IMG/VR virus record: IMGVR_UViG_3300030107_001856
Location: 1-55,298 of that record
Origin: a virus
Lineage: Duplodnaviria; Caudoviricetes
DNA length: 55,298 nt
Strand: one strand, 5' to 3'
Position numbers and translations under genes: made by a program. The notes under the pieces were generated by a model. It searched no databases and was not told the origin of the DNA. It worked only from the letters and a program-made list of their open reading frames with translations. Position 1 is the stretch's first letter. The number at the start of each line of letters is the position of its first letter. Positions 7,351 to 40,388 of the stretch are shown one piece after another.

Positions 7351-7548
7351 TTATGCAACCTTATTTATTCTGTTTAAATTAATAAAGTATTGCCTGTTAT
7401 AACCTCGTTCCCACTCTTTGTGTTCAAGAGATTTTAACCTGTATGGGTTATAACTATTTACTCTAAAGCCCTCTCTTCCTTCAAAGAATGCTTTTTCATT
7501 AAGGTGCTTACGTCTTTTCTTGTGTGTAGACCTGTGTCTGTTAAACAC
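7351..7548 (-). CDS. Ribosome modulation factor (RMF)-like small protein
   Basis: GAGGAG SD before GTG; AFFEGREGF....NPY......KEWERGY matches the RMF A..RGY.AG...CPY......W..GW pattern. Confidence 0.55.
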   Translation of the reverse strand: MFNRHRSTHKKRRKHLNEKAFFEGREGFRVNSYNPYRLKSLEHKEWERGYNRQYFINLNRINKVA

Positions 7549-10479: not shown

Positions 10480-11351
10480 GCTGCTTCTCCTTCCATGTTG
10501 TTTAGTTCTGTGTATGCTACCATAGGTTTGCTCTTAGCCTTAGAGAATACTGACTCCCTCTCTTGCATATTAGGCCAACAACTAAATCTATATTTACACC
10601 AAGAACATTCCATACCAAGTTTTCTGTTTCCAGTAATCACTCTGTTAAATGTTTCTGGCTCATCCTCAAAGCATCTTTCAAAGGGTGCATCTGAAACCAA
10701 TGCATCTATCTTCTTCTCTGCTTCTTTTAAAATGCTAGATACTTCTTCTTTAGTATCTGTGCTTTCTATTCTGTTAAGTTCACCAGTAGTTATGTTCATT
10801 GCCCATATACCACCAGCAGGTTTGCCAGTAGCTGAAGCGTATACGTGTAACTGTGTTACGTATCCAAAAGAATCTTTCTCTTTCAATGCATTCCAACTGA
10901 CAAATTTATTTCTAAAAGCAAAGTCTGAAGTAGATTTTATGTCATCAATTCTGCCATCATCAAAAGATAAATCTGCCTCTCCTGTTACTGTATGCTCACC
11001 TATTTTAGTAGTGAGATTTTGAGAAGATTTATATCCTTCTAGATTAGTTTCTTTTATAACGCCCTTTAATACCGCTTCTACTATATCTCCTAATATCATT
11101 CGTAGTAAGAAATTATATGAAAACGCTACTCCTTTTTCCCCTTTCTTTTCCATCTGTAATTGGCACAAGGGCCTACCAAGATTAGATGGTCTTACTTTAA
11201 ATTCTCTTCTATTTGTTGAAGAAGCAAACTGCTTACGTAATGCGTCAGCTACATCATTACATACGGTGGAGATAGTGTCCTCTGTCATGGACACCTCCCC
11301 ATCCATATTCTTTTGAAGCCAACTAATAACCCTCGCTAACTTCAAATCCAT
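10476..11351 (-). CDS. PD-(D/E)xK exonuclease (Cas4/RecB-like)
   Basis: RPSNLGRPLCQL, GEADL...DDIKS, GYVTQLHVYA, CSWCKYRFSCW Fe-S cysteines. Confidence 0.85.
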   Translation of the reverse strand: MDLKLARVISWLQKNMDGEVSMTEDTISTVCNDVADALRKQFASSTNRREFKVRPSNLGRPLCQLQMEKKGEKGVAFSYNFLLRMILGDIVEAVLKGVIKETNLEGYKSSQNLTTKIGEHTVTGEADLSFDDGRIDDIKSTSDFAFRNKFVSWNALKEKDSFGYVTQLHVYASATGKPAGGIWAMNITTGELNRIESTDTKEEVSSILKEAEKKIDALVSDAPFERCFEDEPETFNRVITGNRKLGMECSWCKYRFSCWPNMQERESVFSKAKSKPMVAYTELNNMEGEAA

Positions 11352-15570: not shown

Positions 15571-16327
15571 TTTGTATTTCCTCTATAGCCATATCTTTAA
15601 TGTCTAGTTCTAATGCAACCACCTTACACTTGTCAACGCCTACGAATATTCTCCTAGACATTTGTATAGCTTTGTCCGTTGCATCCTTATCAAGCGCGAT
15701 AGTTACATTCTGGTATGTATCCCATATCTTATTTAGATTGTTAGTAGATAATGATGTACCTAAAAGGGGCATGGCATCTGTATCTTTTAGATATGTTACT
15801 GCCTTCCATGCCGATATGATATCCTCTACTATAATTAGATTAGGTTTTGATGGGGCATCAAACGGTACAACAATCGCACTGTCAATGTCACTATATCTTT
15901 TCCATTTGGGCTTTCGCCAAACGTCCAATGCCCTACCAATAGCGTCCACATTTTCGCCATATTTCTGGATCATAAACGCCACCCGTCTTTCTAGCGGATC
16001 GTATAGGACAGGGATACTTATATTGTTTATACAATAAGTGTCTAGAAAATCGCTACAAATATTAGCATAAGCCAGATTACTGAGAGTAGTGGTTCTGTCA
16101 TTTTGTATTCCTTTCGTTTTGTTTCGTTGTTGTTGATTAAATCTAATATCTTCTAGTGACATACTTGAATTATGTTTTACTCCACGATAATTACACGAAG
16201 CAGAGTAGCAGTTCCATTTAATTGTATTGCCCTCCCTACTTAAAGTAAAGGTGTTATGGCGGTGGCACTTGGGGCAACTACCCCTTTTGCTTTCGCCAGA
16301 TCGTATGTCATCGAAGTCAATATTCAT
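15527..16327 (-). CDS. DNA primase (Zn-binding + TOPRIM)
   Basis: CPKC...C....C, PKWKRY, IVEDIISA, LLGTSL, ALDKDAT, DIKD. Confidence 0.88.
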   Translation of the reverse strand: MNIDFDDIRSGESKRGSCPKCHRHNTFTLSREGNTIKWNCYSASCNYRGVKHNSSMSLEDIRFNQQQRNKTKGIQNDRTTTLSNLAYANICSDFLDTYCINNISIPVLYDPLERRVAFMIQKYGENVDAIGRALDVWRKPKWKRYSDIDSAIVVPFDAPSKPNLIIVEDIISAWKAVTYLKDTDAMPLLGTSLSTNNLNKIWDTYQNVTIALDKDATDKAIQMSRRIFVGVDKCKVVALELDIKDMAIEEIQNVGTSQGTMQQRNI

Positions 16328-16758
16328 TTGTAAAATATATGATCCTCTATCTGAAGAAGGTACTGCCTATTCCATTGGGGATCTACATTAATAGAGTGAT
16401 AAAATACTGCCCCTTCAAGTAAAGGTATAGATAAGCCATAGGTATAGTGAACCTCCTCTGCTATACGTATAGCTTTATCCCAGGATCTTTTATCTTTTGG
16501 TACATCAGATAAGCCATCACAGTAGAATGAGAATTGGCAACGATGCTTCACTGGATAGTTTTGTTTCCAGCTATACGTAGGCCCCTCCTTTACCACACCG
16601 CACACAGTGTTAGGCCAACGGCTATCATGGGTACGGTTCAAGACCACTTGCGCGACAGCCATCTGACCTACGGTAGGTTGATCCCTAGCCTCAAAGTATA
16701 TTGCTTGTGCCAGACAGGTTATGGATGCACCGAATGCTAGTACTGTAGCTTCAAGCAT
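16324..16758 (-). CDS. Cell wall hydrolase, SleB family
   Basis: CLAQAIYFEAR, GQMAVAQVVLNR, P.TVCGVV, CQFSFYCDG, HIFY. Confidence 0.92.
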   Translation of the reverse strand: MLEATVLAFGASITCLAQAIYFEARDQPTVGQMAVAQVVLNRTHDSRWPNTVCGVVKEGPTYSWKQNYPVKHRCQFSFYCDGLSDVPKDKRSWDKAIRIAEEVHYTYGLSIPLLEGAVFYHSINVDPQWNRQYLLQIEDHIFYK

Positions 16759-17081
16759 TACCTGTTATCTCCGCTTCCACCTATCTTACCGCGATCCATA
16801 CGGGAGCTTAACTTATCTAAATTAATTTCTACAGCCTCAGTTAGATCTATATCCAGATCGTCAGCAACACGGGCTAGATACCAGAGAACATCACCTATTT
16901 CTTTTTTAAGATCCGTCTTCCGTACCGTACTTATCTTCCCGTTATCATCACGGTAGATCTTTTTAATCTGGTTCATTAGTTCGCCCACCTCACCAGATAA
17001 ACCTAGTGATGGGTAAATAATGTCGTCACTGTATATCTTGGTCTTACGGGTTTCGATTTGATATTTGTTAAAGTCTAACAT
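16758..17081 (-). CDS. mazG: MazG-like nucleoside triphosphate pyrophosphohydrolase
   Basis: GGAG SD before MLDFNKYQ; LGLSGEVGE..IKK..RD, EIGDVLWY, GSGDNR. Confidence 0.88.
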   Translation of the reverse strand: MLDFNKYQIETRKTKIYSDDIIYPSLGLSGEVGELMNQIKKIYRDDNGKISTVRKTDLKKEIGDVLWYLARVADDLDIDLTEAVEINLDKLSSRMDRGKIGGSGDNR

Positions 17082-17085
17082 ATTA

Positions 17086-17691
17086 TTACTCCTGATAAAG
17101 TTTTGGATAATTATCTTCAATAGTATATCGAAGCGCATTACGCAATGTCTTTTTATCTTTCTTTGATCCGATAAAATATACGTAGCGGTGCTTCGCGGAT
17201 CTATTAATTCTGTTTTGTCTATCGCCTAAATGATGACGCGAGTGCTTACCGTCTGCACTTGCCATATCTGTACGGGCTTTTGTTGTGCCAGTGAATAGGA
17301 AATTACAGGCTTGATAAATAATACCAGCATGGTCTTGAGCAGTGTCAGCATAGGACACTACGACCTTGGGCTTCGGTAATAATTTGAGGGAGCGAGACAC
17401 CAAGAACGATGCCTGATTAGGTAGGTTATCTTTCAAGACCAGCCTGTTTAATTCAATTACGTTATGCCTATGCTCTTCGCCACATATGCCCTTACATAAA
17501 AAGGGAGAGGCTGGTGTACCATAAGATACCATGCCGACAAGTTCATCGTAGTGATACAAGCCATAGGCGAAGCTAATGCTAGGCATTCTTTTCGCATAAT
17601 GGATATTGAGTATCCAGTCTTTTGTTGCAGAGTATGGGATTTGAACCACCTCATATTCACTCTGCATTTGGTTTGACCAACCAACAAACAT
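17086..17691 (-). CDS. Mom-like GNAT-fold DNA adenine modification protein
   Basis: HYAKR, GMVSYGTP, ELNRLV, ASFLVSRSL, VVSYAD..Q.H.GIIYQACNF...G, K.RY. Confidence 0.78.
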   Translation of the reverse strand: MFVGWSNQMQSEYEVVQIPYSATKDWILNIHYAKRMPSISFAYGLYHYDELVGMVSYGTPASPFLCKGICGEEHRHNVIELNRLVLKDNLPNQASFLVSRSLKLLPKPKVVVSYADTAQDHAGIIYQACNFLFTGTTKARTDMASADGKHSRHHLGDRQNRINRSAKHRYVYFIGSKKDKKTLRNALRYTIEDNYPKLYQE

Positions 17692-17754
17692 AACACACCT
17701 CCTATATAAACTCTATTTGCTTTGTCGTTTTACTGAAGTTTTATTGGGTTGTTG

Positions 17755-17943
17755 TTATGCCACGAAGCGGTGGTTTTTTATAACCCCTATTATATACCCT
17801 TTAGGATAAGTACGGAGTATACTATCGTATGCTTTACGGGGGGTTGTCTCATAAGATGGTAGCACTTCTACAGTACCGCCATATTGTTTTTTATAAACTA
17901 CTTTAAAAGGCTGATTAGGAAAACATTTTAGTTTTATACGCAT
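17755..17943 (-). CDS. Hypothetical early protein
   Basis: AAGGA SD directly downstream of a promoter. Confidence 0.6.
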   Translation of the reverse strand: MRIKLKCFPNQPFKVVYKKQYGGTVEVLPSYETTPRKAYDSILRTYPKGYIIGVIKNHRFVA

Positions 17944-17987
17944 GGATTTGTATCCTTACTTGTTTGTTTGTGTTTTAATTAAAGATT

Positions 17988-18016
17988 GTTATATCACAAT
18001 GTTAGTTGAAAGTCAA
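17988..18016 (-). promoter_or_regulatory. Sigma70-type promoter
   Basis: TTGACT-17 bp-TATAAC. Confidence 0.7.
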
Positions 18017-18030
18017 ATAGTTTTTAGCTA

Positions 18031-18264
18031 CTACTGCCTGACCTTTACCTCTGAGATATCCCATTCTACTGCCTTATAACTAGATTTATACTTGGCCTGT
18101 TTGCCAAGGCTATATACCTTCTTTACATCCAGCCCATGCATATCTGCTATTAGTTGTGCAGTTTGCATAGACCAGTTAGGGTTAGCCTTGGCAGAGTGCC
18201 AGATAAATTCCATGATAGAATTATACTCTAGTTGTTTTTGAAGTTGTTGTTTAGTCAGGCTCAT
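18031..18264 (-). CDS. Hypothetical early protein (possible small HTH)
   Basis: 77 aa; TAQLIADMHGLDVKKVYSL is HTH-like. Confidence 0.6.
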   Translation of the reverse strand: MSLTKQQLQKQLEYNSIMEFIWHSAKANPNWSMQTAQLIADMHGLDVKKVYSLGKQAKYKSSYKAVEWDISEVKVRQ

Positions 18265-18682
18265 TTGATTTTACTAAACCATCATCAACTAACGCAGACT
18301 TGAGATCATCCATCTGATCCTCACCCCATGCTGATATTTTGACGATAGACCAGTCGGGCCTATTGTGATATTGCTCTTCATTTAATCTTTTAAAGATACC
18401 AATAACATCCCCAGCTTGAGCATACTTTTTAAGACCAGATATACTAATCCGTTTATCGCCCCTAGTCTTAGCCTTATAGCATCGGATACAACTAATGACG
18501 TTATCATAAACATACGGGGGAAAGTACTCGCTCTTAAATGCTATGCCATCCCCATTTGTTAGGATATTATATGTACCCTCGAACAATTTAATAACGCTTT
18601 TGTTTGCGTCTATGATGTGCTTGTCCAACATGGTTTGAGTAACCTTGATCTCAGCGTAGTCTGTATTAAACATAGAAGTCAT
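18251..18682 (-). CDS. Stand-alone B3/EcoRII-N-like DNA-recognition domain protein
   Basis: AAGGA SD before ATG 18682; IKVTQTMLDK.IIDANKSV...CYKAKTRGDKRISISGLKKYAQAGD resembles the N-terminal domain of MvaI/BcnI-associated restriction proteins. Confidence 0.55.
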   Translation of the reverse strand: MTSMFNTDYAEIKVTQTMLDKHIIDANKSVIKLFEGTYNILTNGDGIAFKSEYFPPYVYDNVISCIRCYKAKTRGDKRISISGLKKYAQAGDVIGIFKRLNEEQYHNRPDWSIVKISAWGEDQMDDLKSALVDDGLVKSNEPD

Positions 18683-18839
18683 ATTTGTTTTTCCTTTTTG
18701 TGTTGTTGTTGTTAGTTTGTTTATCTTTAGTTCTATCGTACGCACCTTTACCCTTTTTGGGTTTGACTATCTGTTGACGGGGGCGATTATATGCAACCGC
18801 CCTCGCTACAGGATTGATAGGTTTTATTCTATCTGTCAT
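18666..18839 (-). CDS. arfA: ArfA-like alternative ribosome-rescue factor (not in ORF track)
   Basis: 57 aa MTDRIKPINPVARAVAYNRPRQQIVKPKKGKGAYDRTK...; N-x-x-A...RQ.IVK.KKGKG[SA]Y.R signature; overlaps both flanking genes. Confidence 0.72.
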   Translation of the reverse strand: MTDRIKPINPVARAVAYNRPRQQIVKPKKGKGAYDRTKDKQTNNNNTKRKNKYDFYV

Positions 18840-18990
18840 CCGTTGTCAATTGATTAATATAATTGTTTACAAATGCCATGTACTCGGCTGTCTGCATGAT
18901 AAATTTATTTAAATCTCCGGAAAGGTAAAGCTCCCTACCCTCTTCCTCAAATTTTTTTTTACGAAATTCGTAATCACTATAGCTTATCAT
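18829..18990 (-). CDS. Hypothetical early protein (not in ORF track)
   Basis: AGGAG SD right after promoter; 53 aa MISYSDYEFRKKKFEEEGRELYLSGDLNKFIMQTAEYMAFVNNYINQLTTDDR. Confidence 0.65.
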   Translation of the reverse strand: MISYSDYEFRKKKFEEEGRELYLSGDLNKFIMQTAEYMAFVNNYINQLTTDDR

Positions 18991-19027
18991 TTGTTTGTGT
19001 CTCCTAAATAAAAATTAAAGATACCCT

Positions 19028-19056
19028 ACTATAACTAAGCCAGAATAAACTGTCAA
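19028..19056 (-). promoter_or_regulatory. Sigma70-type early promoter (leftward)
   Basis: TTGACA-17 bp-TATAGT. Confidence 0.8.
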
Positions 19057-19068
19057 GTTTTTTTTTAG

Positions 19069-19097
19069 TTGACAACCTTATTTTTTTTTGCTAAACT
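19069..19097 (+). promoter_or_regulatory. Sigma70-type promoter (rightward) for the inverted gene
   Basis: TTGACA-17 bp (containing T9)-TAAACT with extended -10 TG. Confidence 0.75.
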
Positions 19098-19224
19098 ACG
19101 TTCACTAATTGGTTGGGGTTAATTACTAAAGCAAGTTAATTTTTTTTTTTTGCGAGGGGTATACATATAAAACATAATATGCGATATTAGTTTTTTTTTT
19201 AATCTTATTAAGGGGCGATACAAA

Positions 19225-19881
19225 ATGCCAATAAGAGATCCTAATAAAATCCATTTTTCTAATATGACGGGCAAGTTGAAGGGACTGCGGGCGATTAGTA
19301 CCAATACAATTACTAATCCATTTTGTATTAAAATGAGTAGTACGAAAAAAGAAAATATAATCTGCGGTAAATGCTATTCGGTGAATATGTTAGAAACCTA
19401 CCGAAAAAATATGCAAGATTGTTTACAGCACAATAGCGACTTATTATCTAATTCAATTATTCAGTTTAGGCATTTACCATTCATTGTTGACGCCTATATC
19501 AGAGTAGACGCGCATGGCGAGTTGATAAACGATATACATCTAATTAACTTGTATAGATTAGCTGACAAAAATCCGCACACTACGTTCGCTATATGGACCA
19601 AAAGAAAAGATATAGTTAACAGTGTAAATAAGACGCGAGAAACGCCCTCTAATGTCATATTGATATTTTCTAATGCTATTATAAATAACGTTAACTACTC
19701 GCCCCCTAAACATTTCCACAAGGTATTTAATAACGTTACAGATAATCATAAGAAAAGAGAACAGAATTGCACGGGTCAAATCTGTATAGAATGCATGGCG
19801 TGTTATAAACACGATAGCGGTATAAACGTTATTATCGAAGCTGAGAAAAAGAATGGTCGCACTATTAAGACTAAACATTAG
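19225..19881 (+). CDS. Gp88-like Cys-rich protein (radical-SAM-like fold), inverted in the early arm
   Basis: NPFC...ICGKCYS, IRVDAHGEL, NP.TTFAIWTKR, P.NV.LIFS, C-terminal NCTGQICIECMACY. Confidence 0.65.
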   Translation: MPIRDPNKIHFSNMTGKLKGLRAISTNTITNPFCIKMSSTKKENIICGKCYSVNMLETYRKNMQDCLQHNSDLLSNSIIQFRHLPFIVDAYIRVDAHGELINDIHLINLYRLADKNPHTTFAIWTKRKDIVNSVNKTRETPSNVILIFSNAIINNVNYSPPKHFHKVFNNVTDNHKKREQNCTGQICIECMACYKHDSGINVIIEAEKKNGRTIKTKH

Positions 19882-19886
19882 GCAAT

Positions 19887-19922
19887 AAAAAACCCCCCAA
19901 GCATTACAGCAAGGGGGGTTTA
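19887..19922. terminator. Bidirectional intrinsic terminator between convergent genes
   Basis: AAAAAACCCCCC...GGGGGGTTT stem with A/T tails. Confidence 0.8.
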
Positions 19923-19938
19923 ATTAGGGCTAGTTAAT

Positions 19939-20898
19939 TTATGCGGCTAGTCTCAAAAATTGCTCACTTCCAACTATTCGCGCTACTTCCCGTTCTCTGG
20001 TATCCAACGTGATAGCAATATTATCTACATTAGCTGAGTTTCTAACGGGGAAATCTACAGCATGAGAACTATACGCCGTTAGGGCTGAGTATAACGCCCA
20101 TACAGTTCGCCCCCTATCGTGTGCTTCGTTCTCCAATTGTTGCATCATCAACTTGACCTTGCGCCCTGCCATTCCGCAATCATTCAAGACCGCTTCCGCT
20201 TGTTCGGGGGTAATAGACTTTTGCGCCCATTGTCTCCACGTATTAACACGGGTTAAAAACTGAGCGCATTGCTCTTCGATAAACCCTGCGAATATGGATG
20301 GAGTAAAACCGCTAGTGTGACGGGCTGATTTCTTATTGTATTCCGCACTAGTGCAACCGTTAGTACACCATAAGTCTTCAGCCCCCGAAAATAAACGAAT
20401 AGATCCGCCACCATTAAATGAATTAGTTAATCCAATCTTAAATAATAACTGGGTTGATGATCCCGATAACTGCCGTATGTCCGCGCCTAGTCCGCTGAAT
20501 AATAAATCAATGCGGGTAAACTGGCCCCCAAAGCTAGAACGCTCAGTCAATTTAATATCGCGCAATGCTTCGCGGGGTAAAGCTGTTTCAGCCCCTTCTT
20601 TAATCATATCATAAAGGGGGGCGTTATCTGCTATCCCGTAAGTAGATCCAACAATGCCTAAATTGCGTCCATTGTCAGTACGTTTCACAAATCGGCCTAA
20701 CGGGTCTTCTTTAAACCTAGTATGGGGGTTATATTCTAGCCCGTATGAATTATCCAAGTATTCCGATCTAACGGCATCATAGACGGGAGATAATACCGCA
20801 TGAAAATCTGTTTTATCAGTCAATGACGGCCATTCAATACCATTTAAAGAAGAATTATTGACTGCGAAATTATTTAAAGTGATTACGTTATTATTCAT
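19939..20898 (-). CDS. DUF932-family protein
   Basis: RTD.G..LGIVGSTY.I.DN, LTNSFNG, LWCTNG, ARHT, G.TVWALYSALTAYSSH. Confidence 0.82.
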   Translation of the reverse strand: MNNNVITLNNFAVNNSSLNGIEWPSLTDKTDFHAVLSPVYDAVRSEYLDNSYGLEYNPHTRFKEDPLGRFVKRTDNGRNLGIVGSTYGIADNAPLYDMIKEGAETALPREALRDIKLTERSSFGGQFTRIDLLFSGLGADIRQLSGSSTQLLFKIGLTNSFNGGGSIRLFSGAEDLWCTNGCTSAEYNKKSARHTSGFTPSIFAGFIEEQCAQFLTRVNTWRQWAQKSITPEQAEAVLNDCGMAGRKVKLMMQQLENEAHDRGRTVWALYSALTAYSSHAVDFPVRNSANVDNIAITLDTREREVARIVGSEQFLRLAA

Positions 20899-37808: not shown

Positions 37809-40388
37809 ATGAGATCTGTAGGTGACATAGCTTTAGATGCTGAAGTACGAGCTATTGCTAGTGGTGCAATAACAGATGGTGCGCCAGTTGTTGTAAACTC
37901 TGCTGGTACTGTTAGCGGTATTAGCGGAAGTGCAGCATCAACAGGCACTGCTGTTGTATTTGCAACTGCTAGTACAGGAGCAGCAAGTGCTGCTTTTGAT
38001 AGCAGTAGTAATAAAGTTGTTATAGTTTTTACAGACTCTGGTAATAGTAATTATGGTACAGCAATTGTAGGTGATGTTTCTGGTACATCAATTTCTTTTG
38101 GCTCAGAAGTAGTTTATGAAAGTGGTAATCATTTTTATGAGGATGTTACATTTGATAGTAATAGTAATAGAATTGTAATTGCTTACGCTGACGGAAGTAA
38201 CTCAAATTATGGTACTGCTGTAGTAGGAACGGTTAGTGGGACATCTATCTCTTTTGGAACACCAGTAGTTTTTGAAAGTGCGTATCCAGAAGAAAGTCAA
38301 ATTACTTTTGATAGCAATTCTAATAAAGTTGTAATTGCTTATAGTGATCAGGGAAATAGCGCACACGGTACAGCAATTGTTGGCACTGTTGATCCATCAG
38401 ATAATAGTATTTCTTTTGGTACGGCTGTTGTATTTGAAGCTGCCGATTCAAGAAATTGTGGAATAACTTTTGACAGTAATAGTAACAAAGTAGTTATAGC
38501 ATATAGAGATGCAGGTAATTCTAGCTATGGTACTGCTATCGTAGGAACAGTCAGTGGAACAAGTATCTCATTTGGAACACCTGCTGTTTATGGATCTTAT
38601 ACAGCCCAACACAATAGACCACGTTTTAATAGCAATGATAATACAATAGTTATATCTCATACTAATGCTACAGCTTCAACAGGTTCAGTAATTGTAGGGT
38701 CAGTTAGTGGAACAAGCATTGGTAGCTTTGGAACCGCTGCTAGTTATGAAACTTCAACTCCTAGTGATCCAAGAGCAACTTTTGATACTAGTCGCAATCA
38801 AATAGTTATCGCTTATAGAGATCAAGATGATACAAAAGGTAAATTTATAGTAGGAACTGTAAGCGGTAATTCAGTTACTTTAGCAGACGCTATTATTTAT
38901 GAAGCTGGTGCGCCAAATACTCCTGGAATAACATTTGACAGTAACAGTAATAAGGTAGTTGTAGGATACGCAGATGGTGGAGATAGTAATAAAGGTAAGG
39001 CTGTTGTATTTAATGGAAGTGATTTAAACCTAACCTCAGAAAACTTCATAGGCTTTGCAAACGCAGCATATGCTGATGGACAAAAAGCTACTGTAAAAAC
39101 TACTGGATCGATTGCTAGGAATATACCGCAACAGGCATCTGCTTCTGACGCATTTGGAGATGAAACTGTATTTGAAAGTGCAGATTCTACTTGGATTGCA
39201 AGTACCTTTGATTCTAACAGCAATAAAGTAGTTATAGGATATAGAGATGTTGGAAACTCAAACTATGGTACAGCTATAGTAGCTACTGTAAGTGGTTCAT
39301 CTATAAGTTATGGAACTCCTGTTGTATATAATAGTGCAACAACTACAGAAAATGTACTTACTTTTGATAGTAATAATAATAAAGTTGTAATTGCATATAA
39401 TAATGGTGGTGATTCAGGTCATGGATATGCAATAGTTGGTACGGTATCTGGTACTAGTATTAGTTTTGGTTCTGCTACTGAGTTTGAAAATGCCACTATA
39501 GCCAATCATTCAATTACATTTGATAGTAATGTAAATAGAGTTGTAATATCATTTAAAGATGAAGGAAATAGTAACTATGCTACAGCTATAGTAGGGGCAG
39601 TAAGTGGCACATCTATATCATTTGGTTCTCCTGTTGTATATGAAAGTGCTAATCCAGAGGAACAAGCAATAACATTTGATTCTAATAGTAACAAAGTAGT
39701 TATTGCGTATAGAGATCATGGAAATTCTCAACATGGCACTGCTATTGTTGGCACTGTAGATTCATCAGACAACAGTATTAGTTTTGGTTCAGCAGCGGTA
39801 TTTAATGCAGCACAAACTAAAGTAGGTGGTATTACTTTTGATTCTAATAGTAACAAGGTAGTTATTGTATATAGCGATCTAGGAAATGGTCAAAAAGGTA
39901 CTGCTATTGTAGGTACAGTTTCTGGTACTAGCATTAGTTTTGGTAGTGAATCTGTATTTAAAGATGCTCAAATTGAGATAGAAAGCAGAACTCATGCTAC
40001 CTTTAATAGCGGAATTAATAAAGTAATAATCACTTATATGAGAATTAGTGACGATGGTGCATATTATGCAGGAACAGTGGTAACAGGCACAGTATCAGGT
40101 ACAGATATAACTTTTGAAACACCTGTTGTATTTAATGCTGCAACTTCTTCATATTCAACTCCTATTTATGACAGTAGTAATAATAGAACAGTTATAACGT
40201 ATAGAGATGTTGGAAATAGTAACTACGGCACTGCAATAGTTTTAGTTAATGCTGGAACACCAGAAGACCTTACAATAGGACAACAATATTTCGTACAAAC
40301 AGATGGAACATTAGGTACTAGTGCTGATGATCCATCGGTAATCGCAGGAACTGCAATAGGCACTAGTGATATAATTGTGAAAGGATAA
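37809..40388 (+). CDS. Receptor-binding/virion surface protein A with two 7-blade propellers
   Basis: 14 repeats of FDSNSNKVVIAYxDxGNSxYGTAIVGTVSGTSISFGxxVVF; ends IVKG. Confidence 0.8.
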   Translation: MRSVGDIALDAEVRAIASGAITDGAPVVVNSAGTVSGISGSAASTGTAVVFATASTGAASAAFDSSSNKVVIVFTDSGNSNYGTAIVGDVSGTSISFGSEVVYESGNHFYEDVTFDSNSNRIVIAYADGSNSNYGTAVVGTVSGTSISFGTPVVFESAYPEESQITFDSNSNKVVIAYSDQGNSAHGTAIVGTVDPSDNSISFGTAVVFEAADSRNCGITFDSNSNKVVIAYRDAGNSSYGTAIVGTVSGTSISFGTPAVYGSYTAQHNRPRFNSNDNTIVISHTNATASTGSVIVGSVSGTSIGSFGTAASYETSTPSDPRATFDTSRNQIVIAYRDQDDTKGKFIVGTVSGNSVTLADAIIYEAGAPNTPGITFDSNSNKVVVGYADGGDSNKGKAVVFNGSDLNLTSENFIGFANAAYADGQKATVKTTGSIARNIPQQASASDAFGDETVFESADSTWIASTFDSNSNKVVIGYRDVGNSNYGTAIVATVSGSSISYGTPVVYNSATTTENVLTFDSNNNKVVIAYNNGGDSGHGYAIVGTVSGTSISFGSATEFENATIANHSITFDSNVNRVVISFKDEGNSNYATAIVGAVSGTSISFGSPVVYESANPEEQAITFDSNSNKVVIAYRDHGNSQHGTAIVGTVDSSDNSISFGSAAVFNAAQTKVGGITFDSNSNKVVIVYSDLGNGQKGTAIVGTVSGTSISFGSESVFKDAQIEIESRTHATFNSGINKVIITYMRISDDGAYYAGTVVTGTVSGTDITFETPVVFNAATSSYSTPIYDSSNNRTVITYRDVGNSNYGTAIVLVNAGTPEDLTIGQQYFVQTDGTLGTSADDPSVIAGTAIGTSDIIVKG

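Follow-up and report, generated by a model that had tools for sequence, protein, structure and literature searches.

A divergent ArfA-like gene in an HMO-2011-type podophage and its relatives in phages and bacteria

Here we describe a 57-aa open reading frame (ORF) on the minus strand of the IMG/VR virus record IMGVR_UViG_3300030107_001856 (55,298 nt, a marine podophage, analysed over its whole length and called the window below). Judged from profile alignments, its predicted product is homologous to the ribosome-rescue factor ArfA over both functional halves of that protein and not in a lysine/glycine-rich motif alone. The ORF, at positions 18666-18839, is a genuine gene under purifying selection. 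An original prediction, made from the letters of the window, had proposed it as an early ribosome-rescue factor, and the ORF exists where that prediction placed it, overlapping both neighbours (by 11 nt and by up to 20 nt). By its sequence the protein is a divergent subtype and not a canonical ArfA, because the positions equivalent to A18, F25 and KH of E. coli ArfA differ and the gene ends in a normal TAA stop codon. We consider it probable that the protein acts as a phage version of ArfA, bringing about stop-codon-independent release on non-stop ribosomes through a host release factor.

Results

Homology of the ORF to ArfA

The predicted protein is small, strongly basic (10 K, 6 R, 4 D and 0 E, counted by eye, for a net charge of about +12) and without a catalytic domain, as expected of an ArfA. 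E. coli ArfA (YhdL; PF03889; structures 5H5U, 5U4I, 5MDV, 5MGP and 7OJ0) is likewise small (about 55 aa in its active form), very basic and largely unstructured. Pfam ArfA is the single family matched by the window ORF (E 2.4e-5, 24.1 bits; 23.8 bits in a six-frame search), with no other Pfam domain. We collected 22 clustered metagenome homologues of 51-61 aa, 20 of which carry a precomputed PF03889 hit and one the Joint Genome Institute (JGI) name 'stalled ribosome alternative rescue factor ArfA'. Aligned with one another, they hardly vary over the first 36 residues and vary freely in the tail. The invariant positions (K6, N9, P10, V11, A12, R13, A16, Y17, R19, P20, Q23, K26, K28, K29, G30, K31, G32 and Y34) fall in an N-terminal block as well as in the KKGKGAY motif, the block being conserved as strongly as this channel motif among the close homologues.

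A first profile (A1) was searched against the PDB (177,635 distinct sequences in this and the following PDB search) and all six sequences at E<=10 were ArfA chains, the best at 4.8e-4. A profile built from the 22-homologue alignment retrieved 116 clusters (50% identity level, E<=1e-3, median length 54 aa) from 1.84 billion representative proteins, and 79 of the diverse cluster representatives were used for a further alignment and profile, A2. Searching the PDB with A2 returned six matches at E<=1, all of them E. coli ArfA chains (best E 7.1e-11), and the Pfam ArfA model in turn matched each of the 79 A2 members at E<=0.01 (best 1e-19). Both the Pfam E value of the ORF and the E value of A2 against ArfA show that the likeness exceeds chance, and the segment of E. 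coli ArfA quoted in the original prediction agrees with the PDB chain in the HMMER alignment.

The A2-to-E. coli alignment runs without a gap over ArfA residues 11-54, covering the half that contacts release factor 2 (RF2) and the half that lies in the mRNA channel, with window residue i corresponding to ArfA residue i+5. From N9/N14 to Y34/Y39 the two proteins share RQ and K.KKGKG.Y.R, with 11 of 28 residues identical by eye. The conserved N and the conserved Y stand 25 residues apart in the window, as they do in 65 of the 80 representatives with both motifs; our own count from the alignment gives the same 25 residues for N14-Y39 of E. coli ArfA. AlphaFold2, run with A2, predicts a single helix at residues 10-17, equivalent to E. 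coli 15-22, and mostly coil elsewhere (mean predicted local distance difference test score, pLDDT, 73.5; 91 for residues 11-20 and 83-91 for the N-terminal block). The QQIV segment is beta-prone, with Q23 invariant and V25 nearly so, and AlphaFold2 gives no strand for the free protein. Because the profile alignment is gapless, the 25-residue spacing is kept and an equivalent helix is predicted, we regard the homology as extending over both halves. A complex prediction of residues 1-45 (with A2) and Caulobacter RF2 gave an ipSAE of 0.00 in both runs; controls were not run, and the result speaks neither for nor against binding.

These alignments bear directly on the idea that the protein is a generic small basic peptide that binds nucleic acid (DNA, RNA or as a chaperone), with a likeness to ArfA that stems from its lysine/glycine-rich motif. 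The very basic composition, the predominance of predicted coil and a single-sequence Pfam match of only 19 residues would all fit such a peptide. However, profile searches of the PDB match nothing but ArfA, and the N-terminal block, which is not basic, is invariant and aligns gaplessly with ArfA at a fixed spacing of 25, so that we hold this explanation to be improbable. BrfA of Bacillus and ArfT of Francisella are likewise small and basic and bring release factors to non-stop ribosomes; passages of PMC8012679 describe them as having evolved independently of ArfA, BrfA with 'very low sequence similarity'. Neither was returned by the A1 or A2 searches of the PDB.

Evidence that the ORF is a gene

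Differences between the window and 14 related viral loci show third-position bias. Locus L013, for example, has 7, 2 and 21 differences at codon positions 1, 2 and 3, corresponding to 17 synonymous and 6 non-synonymous codons, and the 4, 6 and 6 changed codons of L007, L008 and L010 are all synonymous. As the differences of relatives fall mainly at third codon positions, the frame is really coding. The overlap with the downstream gene recurs at about 17-20 nt in seven related viral loci (tblastn placements). Its shortness, its overlap with both neighbours and the lack of a clear Shine-Dalgarno sequence might suggest an ORF that arose by chance in AT-rich intergenic or overlapping sequence, but the substitution bias, the 22 homologues, the occurrence at more than 100 viral loci and the retained synteny make this explanation hardly credible. 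Conservation of the frame in relatives is thereby borne out, through the homologues as well as the codon bias in viral loci.

The ORF lies just downstream of a divergent promoter region, at the head of the leftward block of replication and nucleotide-metabolism genes, in agreement with its proposed early-operon placement, and it is indeed the second ORF after a sigma-70-like promoter sequence (Table 1). This sequence is the best site of its type in 16500-19400, where promoter-like sites as a class are not enriched (14, against 10.7 +/- 3.0 in shuffles). Contigs from three RNA libraries belonging to three studies span the ORF at 92-97% identity (X20, oligo-dT RNA, 18653-18880; X19, 18248-18988; X18, 18707-19010). 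Two of these libraries are RNA by guess only and DNA carry-over is possible, so that the contigs weakly back transcription of the ORF, and the contig ends at 19010 and 18988 are a weak hint of a start downstream of the promoter sequence.

ArfA-like ORFs in other phages

A scan of IMG/VR confirmed at least 145 of 582 candidate stretches as ArfA-like, and 80 viral loci were kept from it. Both motifs are present in 76 of the 80 viral ORFs; the KKGKGSY-type motif, which has the form KKGKGAY in the window, occurs in 77 of them and in 89 of the 116 cluster representatives.

Among phages, tblastn with the window ORF returned only five records at E 2-10, none significant alone, and tblastn with P0083 and P0081 returned nothing at E<=1, showing that short-query BLAST is too insensitive for this family. 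The weak tblastn records comprised four distinct phages, all of which were subsequently matched by A2: HTVC027P (3.4e-15), CRP-212 (6.5e-18), Cr30 (3.9e-17) and CRP-1 (1.9e-8). A2 also matched all five phages picked by coat similarity alone, namely HMO-2011 (E 5e-6), CRP-345 (5.5e-9), CRP-13 (2.4e-7), HTVC115P (2.4e-7) and HTVC033P (6e-4). In total nine of nine cultured phages of Alphaproteobacteria matched, two of them weakly; the matches of CRP-13 and HTVC033P are uncertain, since they cover the N-terminal half only and lie in another frame inside annotated genes. None of four control phages (of Methylophilales, Stenotrophomonas, Vibrio and Pseudoalteromonas) was matched by A2, and Sinorhizobium phage phiM6 gave a weak match (E 9e-4).

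In GenBank only HTVC027P gp30 and HTVC115P gp18 are annotated as coding sequences, both as hypothetical proteins, and the remaining matches either carry no annotation or fall inside other genes. In CRP-212 a complete 41-aa ArfA-like ORF with both motifs (L003:1489-1614; record 39016-39195, minus) is embedded, in another frame, in the stretch that codes for the acidic C-terminal part of gp38 (1204 aa). It lies immediately before the scaffold and coat genes and may be an overlapping gene. The weaker CRP-13 match (27 bits) has a comparable location, about 1 kb from the coat gene, inside gp52 and out of frame. In Caulobacter phage Cr30, a T4-like phage with a genetically tractable host, an unannotated 50-aa ArfA-like ORF (L004:1444-1596; record 11136-11246 region) is located between two hypothetical genes, near genes for GMP reductase and RNA ligase.

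Two variant forms were observed. A long fused form of about 258-266 aa (L077:3938-4711, L081 and L083; partial in L074, L084 and L085) has the ArfA-like block near its N-terminus, then a lysine-rich stretch and a C-terminal segment that is conserved and ends in ...GGAPGQWSARKAQM.ASAYKKAGGGY, and ArfA (22.4 bits) is its sole Pfam match. Variants without GKGSY occur at L124:1293-1439 (HMO-2011), at L115 and L121 (CRP-1 and CRP-345), and at L056 and L078. They retain the N-P-V-A-K/R block and have shorter motifs in place of KKGKGSY (..VVPDKTKYNRKKDK and ..VVPPKKGNKRK). Pfam DUF7230 (PF23876) is matched by 7 of the 79 A2 family members; the HMO-2011 variant reaches 24.1 bits against a cut-off of 27, and the window ORF has no DUF7230 match at E<=1. 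From these matches DUF7230 appears to be a GKGSY-less sister form of ArfA with the same N-terminal block.

ArfA-like ORFs in bacterial chromosomes

Cellular genomes were scanned at one genome per species with the motif K[PAS]KKGKGSY and a narrower alignment (A3), with confirmation against the window protein. Twenty-five of 393 stretches were confirmed: 18 in Pelagibacterales, 4 in other Alphaproteobacteria and 3 in Gammaproteobacteria. The SAR11 ORFs of the Pelagibacterales loci (L088, L089-L097, L099, L100 and L105-L110) are about 35-45 aa long and have the same ORF layout in all nine loci examined of the 18. The copy at L088:3001-3114, which lies between a response regulator gene and a block with a pfkB kinase gene, nth, dapB and dnaJ, scores 30.8 bits with Pfam ArfA, above the cut-off. 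Across 81 sampled Pelagibacterales genomes the Pfam model matched 23 at E<=1e-3, 9 of them above the cut-off. Like the window protein, the SAR11 chromosomal ORFs have a K/R-type N-terminal block, with the motif KPKKGKGSY; unlike it, they stand in housekeeping synteny, have a shorter tail and keep an aromatic residue at the F25-equivalent position.

The ArfA-like family is therefore present but sparse in Alphaproteobacteria. PMC8012679, in the part that treats distribution, has ArfA confined to some beta- and gammaproteobacteria, and Table 1 of PMC11633108 lists arfA in 0 of 2,376 Alphaproteobacteria, which differs from the SAR11 copies found here.

Proposed mechanism and its alternatives

In the structural passages of PMC8012679, helix 15-24 of E. 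coli ArfA contacts the decoding centre and supports RF2 activation, Q27-E30 adds a strand to the RF2 sheet, and hydrophobic contacts of F25 with RF2 beta4/beta5 explain the specificity for RF2. The same passages report that the A18T exchange blocks RF2 activation by steric hindrance, that the KH motif, shared with BrfA, contacts the channel and that the ArfA C-terminus overlaps the SmpB site there.

By analogy, the ArfA-like protein would be made early in infection from an ordinary message terminated by a stop codon. Its basic KKGKGAY segment and tail would occupy the mRNA entry channel that is left empty when a ribosome stalls at the 3' end of a truncated mRNA, placing NPVARAVAY and then QQIV at the decoding centre, where a host class-I release factor, most likely RF2, could dock by strand addition. 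The release factor would then hydrolyse the peptidyl-tRNA without a stop codon, freeing the ribosome. The likely benefit is that a small ribosome pool would be recycled while mRNAs degrade in infection, without the proteolysis tag of transfer-messenger RNA (tmRNA). Ribosome binding, release-factor recruitment and advantage to the phage are all inferred. As in E. coli ArfA, the protein has no catalytic domain of its own and dependence on a host release factor is expected. The window encodes no transfer RNA (tRNA) or tmRNA and no RF-1 (release-factor) domain was found in it, and therefore a host factor must be used.

Several features differ from E. coli ArfA. The window protein is phage-encoded and has a shorter N-terminus (8 instead of 13 residues before the conserved N). 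The hallmark of E. coli arfA is a non-stop message repressed by trans-translation; the window gene instead has a TAA stop, and its product would therefore be made regardless of tmRNA capacity. A stable hairpin in the mRNA (Table 1) sits in the middle of the ORF and not at its 3' end, where the gene overlaps its neighbour. The 231-nt region of this hairpin has z = -2.25 against shuffles. Its sequence is almost unchanged in the closest relatives, an AAT-to-GAC change in L009 and L018 preserves the pairing, and the L013 clade lacks the hairpin.

A number of observations weigh against an ArfA-like mode of action. The hidden Markov model search named in the original prediction gave the significant E value and the matches of all A2 members reported above, but left the window ORF alone, at 24.1 bits, under the Pfam ArfA gathering cut-off of 25.5 bits; its single-sequence match spans only profile positions 24-42 (ORF residues 21-39), and PHROGs and NCBIfam searches gave no family. 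Relatives do exceed the cut-off (P0059 with 35.5 bits, L047 with 29.3 bits). At the position of E. coli A18 the window has R13, the 80 representatives showing K/R in 75 and A in 2 cases. F25 is replaced by P20, which is invariant in the clade of the window; over the representatives this position is F/Y in 36, L/I/W in 13, R/K in 21 and P in 2. The KH motif corresponds to D39-K40 and the window tail has no H, while KH is present in some relatives, e.g. P0047, P0066 and P0107. HMO-2011, CRP-1 and CRP-345 have the variants without GKGSY, and because some relatives have lost this motif the family does not depend strictly on the channel anchor. Finally, A2 matches only 9 of 201 sampled Alphaproteobacteria (E<=1e-4), which bears on whether alphaproteobacterial RF2 can be activated in this way.

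Some of these observations would suit a protein that binds the mRNA channel and decoding centre like ArfA with another outcome. It might block SmpB-tmRNA, so that phage proteins from processed messages are spared the degradation tag; it might recruit RF1 or both release factors; or, by plugging vacant ribosomes, it might serve host shut-off or hibernation. In line with such outcomes, the residues for RF2 activation and specificity in E. coli are not kept, the C-terminus of ArfA shares its channel site with SmpB, the GKGSY-less variants retain the N-terminal block, and with a normal stop codon the phage copy would escape repression by trans-translation. Still, both the helix and the strand-equivalent segment are conserved, with the spacing that they have in ArfA, a mere channel plug would not need an N-terminal block conserved like the channel motif, and the occurrence of the K/R-type protein in a housekeeping setting in SAR11 speaks for an ordinary role in cellular rescue. 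We therefore consider an altered outcome rather unlikely, and release through a host release factor on non-stop ribosomes is the action that we favour.

Taking phages and hosts together, a wider proposal can be put forward tentatively, although we doubt that it holds in full: the gene would be a near-core, almost wholly unannotated component of HMO-2011-type and other marine alphaproteobacterial phages, of K/R18 type and often without F25, that provides stop-codon-independent termination in mostly ArfA-less hosts, maybe through both RF1 and RF2 or against tmRNA tagging. It would then represent a takeover of ribosome quality control and not a plain copy of a host gene.

Relation to published work

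As an annotation, a phage ArfA has been published before; how broad the family is has not. Full-text literature searches yielded a single paper that names a phage ArfA, PMC12753301, a passage of which states that HTVC027P gp30 'contains an ArfA (PF03889.18) domain', the naming being by Pfam domain alone. That passage also gives gp30 as highly expressed at 3 h post infection and at 12-15 h, and suggests that it promotes phage protein synthesis. The term 'undescribed' used in the original prediction therefore fails for the name, given HTVC027P gp30 and the one JGI-named homologue, and stands for the family's breadth. Burroughs and Aravind 2019 (PMC6514570) mention ArfA twice and do not mention phages.

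HTVC027P gp30 (P0023) resembles the window protein in being a small phage protein with an N-P-V-A-K/R block and a KPKKG(K/R)GS(Y/F) motif, and HTVC027P has an alphaproteobacterial host, as do the cultured relatives of the window phage. Unlike the window protein, gp30 is extended at its N-terminus by about 25 residues and carries Y at the F25-equivalent position, its gene adjoins the small terminase gene and not the replication block, and the two proteins are just 48% identical over residues 8-34.

With 116 clusters, all cultured HMO-2011-type phages examined (two of them by weak matches) and SAR11 chromosomes, the ArfA family is much wider than the beta- and gammaproteobacterial range of the literature. 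If the action is ArfA-like, phages of abundant ocean bacteria would routinely bring their own ribosome-rescue factor, which would bear on the course of infection in cells with very few ribosomes and on defences that cleave mRNA or tRNA. The natural K/R18 and F25-less variants would also probe the structural model of RF2 activation by ArfA.

The phage genome and the surroundings of the gene

The window is a whole IMG/VR virus record, estimated to be 100% complete. It carries the gene set of a podophage, with DNA polymerase A, a DnaB-like helicase, ribonucleotide reductase and Mom-like and MazG-like proteins, as well as the virion genes for terminase, portal, an internal virion protein and a P22-type coat. 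The coat protein shares 65% identity with its counterpart in Puniceispirillum phage HMO-2011 and 59-64% with the coats of several roseophages, and the polymerase is 44% identical to the HMO-2011 polymerase. Because of these similarities we assign the window, on sequence grounds, as a complete HMO-2011-type podophage. The cultured relatives by coat and polymerase have alphaproteobacterial hosts (SAR116, the Roseobacter group and SAR11). A blastn search of 17000-20000 against GenBank phages gave nothing.

Table 1 Features of the ArfA-like gene and of its surroundings in the window
Feature	Position	Strand	Remarks
ArfA-like ORF	18666..18839	minus	57 aa, ATG start, TAA stop at 18666-18668; translation MTDRIKPINPVARAVAYNRPRQQIVKPKKGKGAYDRTKDKQTNNNNTKRKNKYDFYV
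N-terminal block, codons N9-Y17 (NPVARAVAY)	18789..18815	minus	gapless against E. coli ArfA N14-D22
Codons Q22-V25 (QQIV)	18765..18776	minus	aligned with E. coli ArfA Q27-E30
Codons K28-Y34 (KKGKGAY)	18738..18758	minus	aligned with E. coli ArfA K33-Y39, start of the mRNA entry channel
Codons 35-57, tail	18669..18737	minus	basic, Asn-rich, variable columns; final codons overlap the start of the next gene
mRNA hairpin	~18777-18806	minus	codons A12-R21, stem of ~9-12 bp
Sigma-70-like promoter sequence TTGACA-17-TATAGT	19056..19028	minus	11/12; 38 nt ahead of the first ORF in the leftward operon
Upstream 53-aa ORF	18829..18990	minus	no assigned function; stop overlaps the ArfA-like start by 11 nt
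Downstream 144-aa ORF	18251..18685	minus	no assigned function; start overlaps the ArfA-like 3' end by up to 20 nt
Mom-like DNA modification protein	17086..17691	minus	Pfam Mom E 1e-34
MazG-like pyrophosphatase	16758..17138	minus	overlaps the Mom-like gene by ~50 nt, same leftward operon
SleB-type cell-wall hydrolase	16324..16758		amid replication genes
Cys-rich protein, 218 aa	19225..19881	plus	first gene of the rightward divergent transcript
RMF-like ORF, 75 aa	7351..7578	minus	match at 7396-7515, PF04957 E 2.8e-4 for this genome; just downstream of the ribonucleotide reductase gene

The 53-aa upstream ORF has no match in Pfam, PHROG or NCBIfam and is also found in the relatives L006, L010 and L011. 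The 20-nt overlap with the 144-aa ORF holds if the start of the latter is the ATG at 18685. This ORF is syntenic in L007-L012 and L018, where the gene order is the ArfA-like ORF, ORFs of 144, 77 and 62 aa, Mom, MazG, the cell-wall hydrolase, a Toprim-like protein and the helicase.

The original prediction had further joined the gene with MazG and an RMF-like gene in a translation-control module, which we reject. In the flanks examined, MazG is present at only 8 of the 80 viral loci with the gene, and the RMF-like ORF, at a distance of 11 kb, reaches 17.5 bits where the cut-off is 27.9 bits. The commonest neighbour is instead a cell-wall hydrolase (Hydrolase_2; 31 of 80 loci), which has no link to translation. 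On the other side of the divergent promoter region, the 218-aa Cys-rich protein has a sub-threshold match to mycobacteriophage GP88 (PF17338; 22.5 bits, cut-off 24.4) and is kept in relatives at 59-90% identity.

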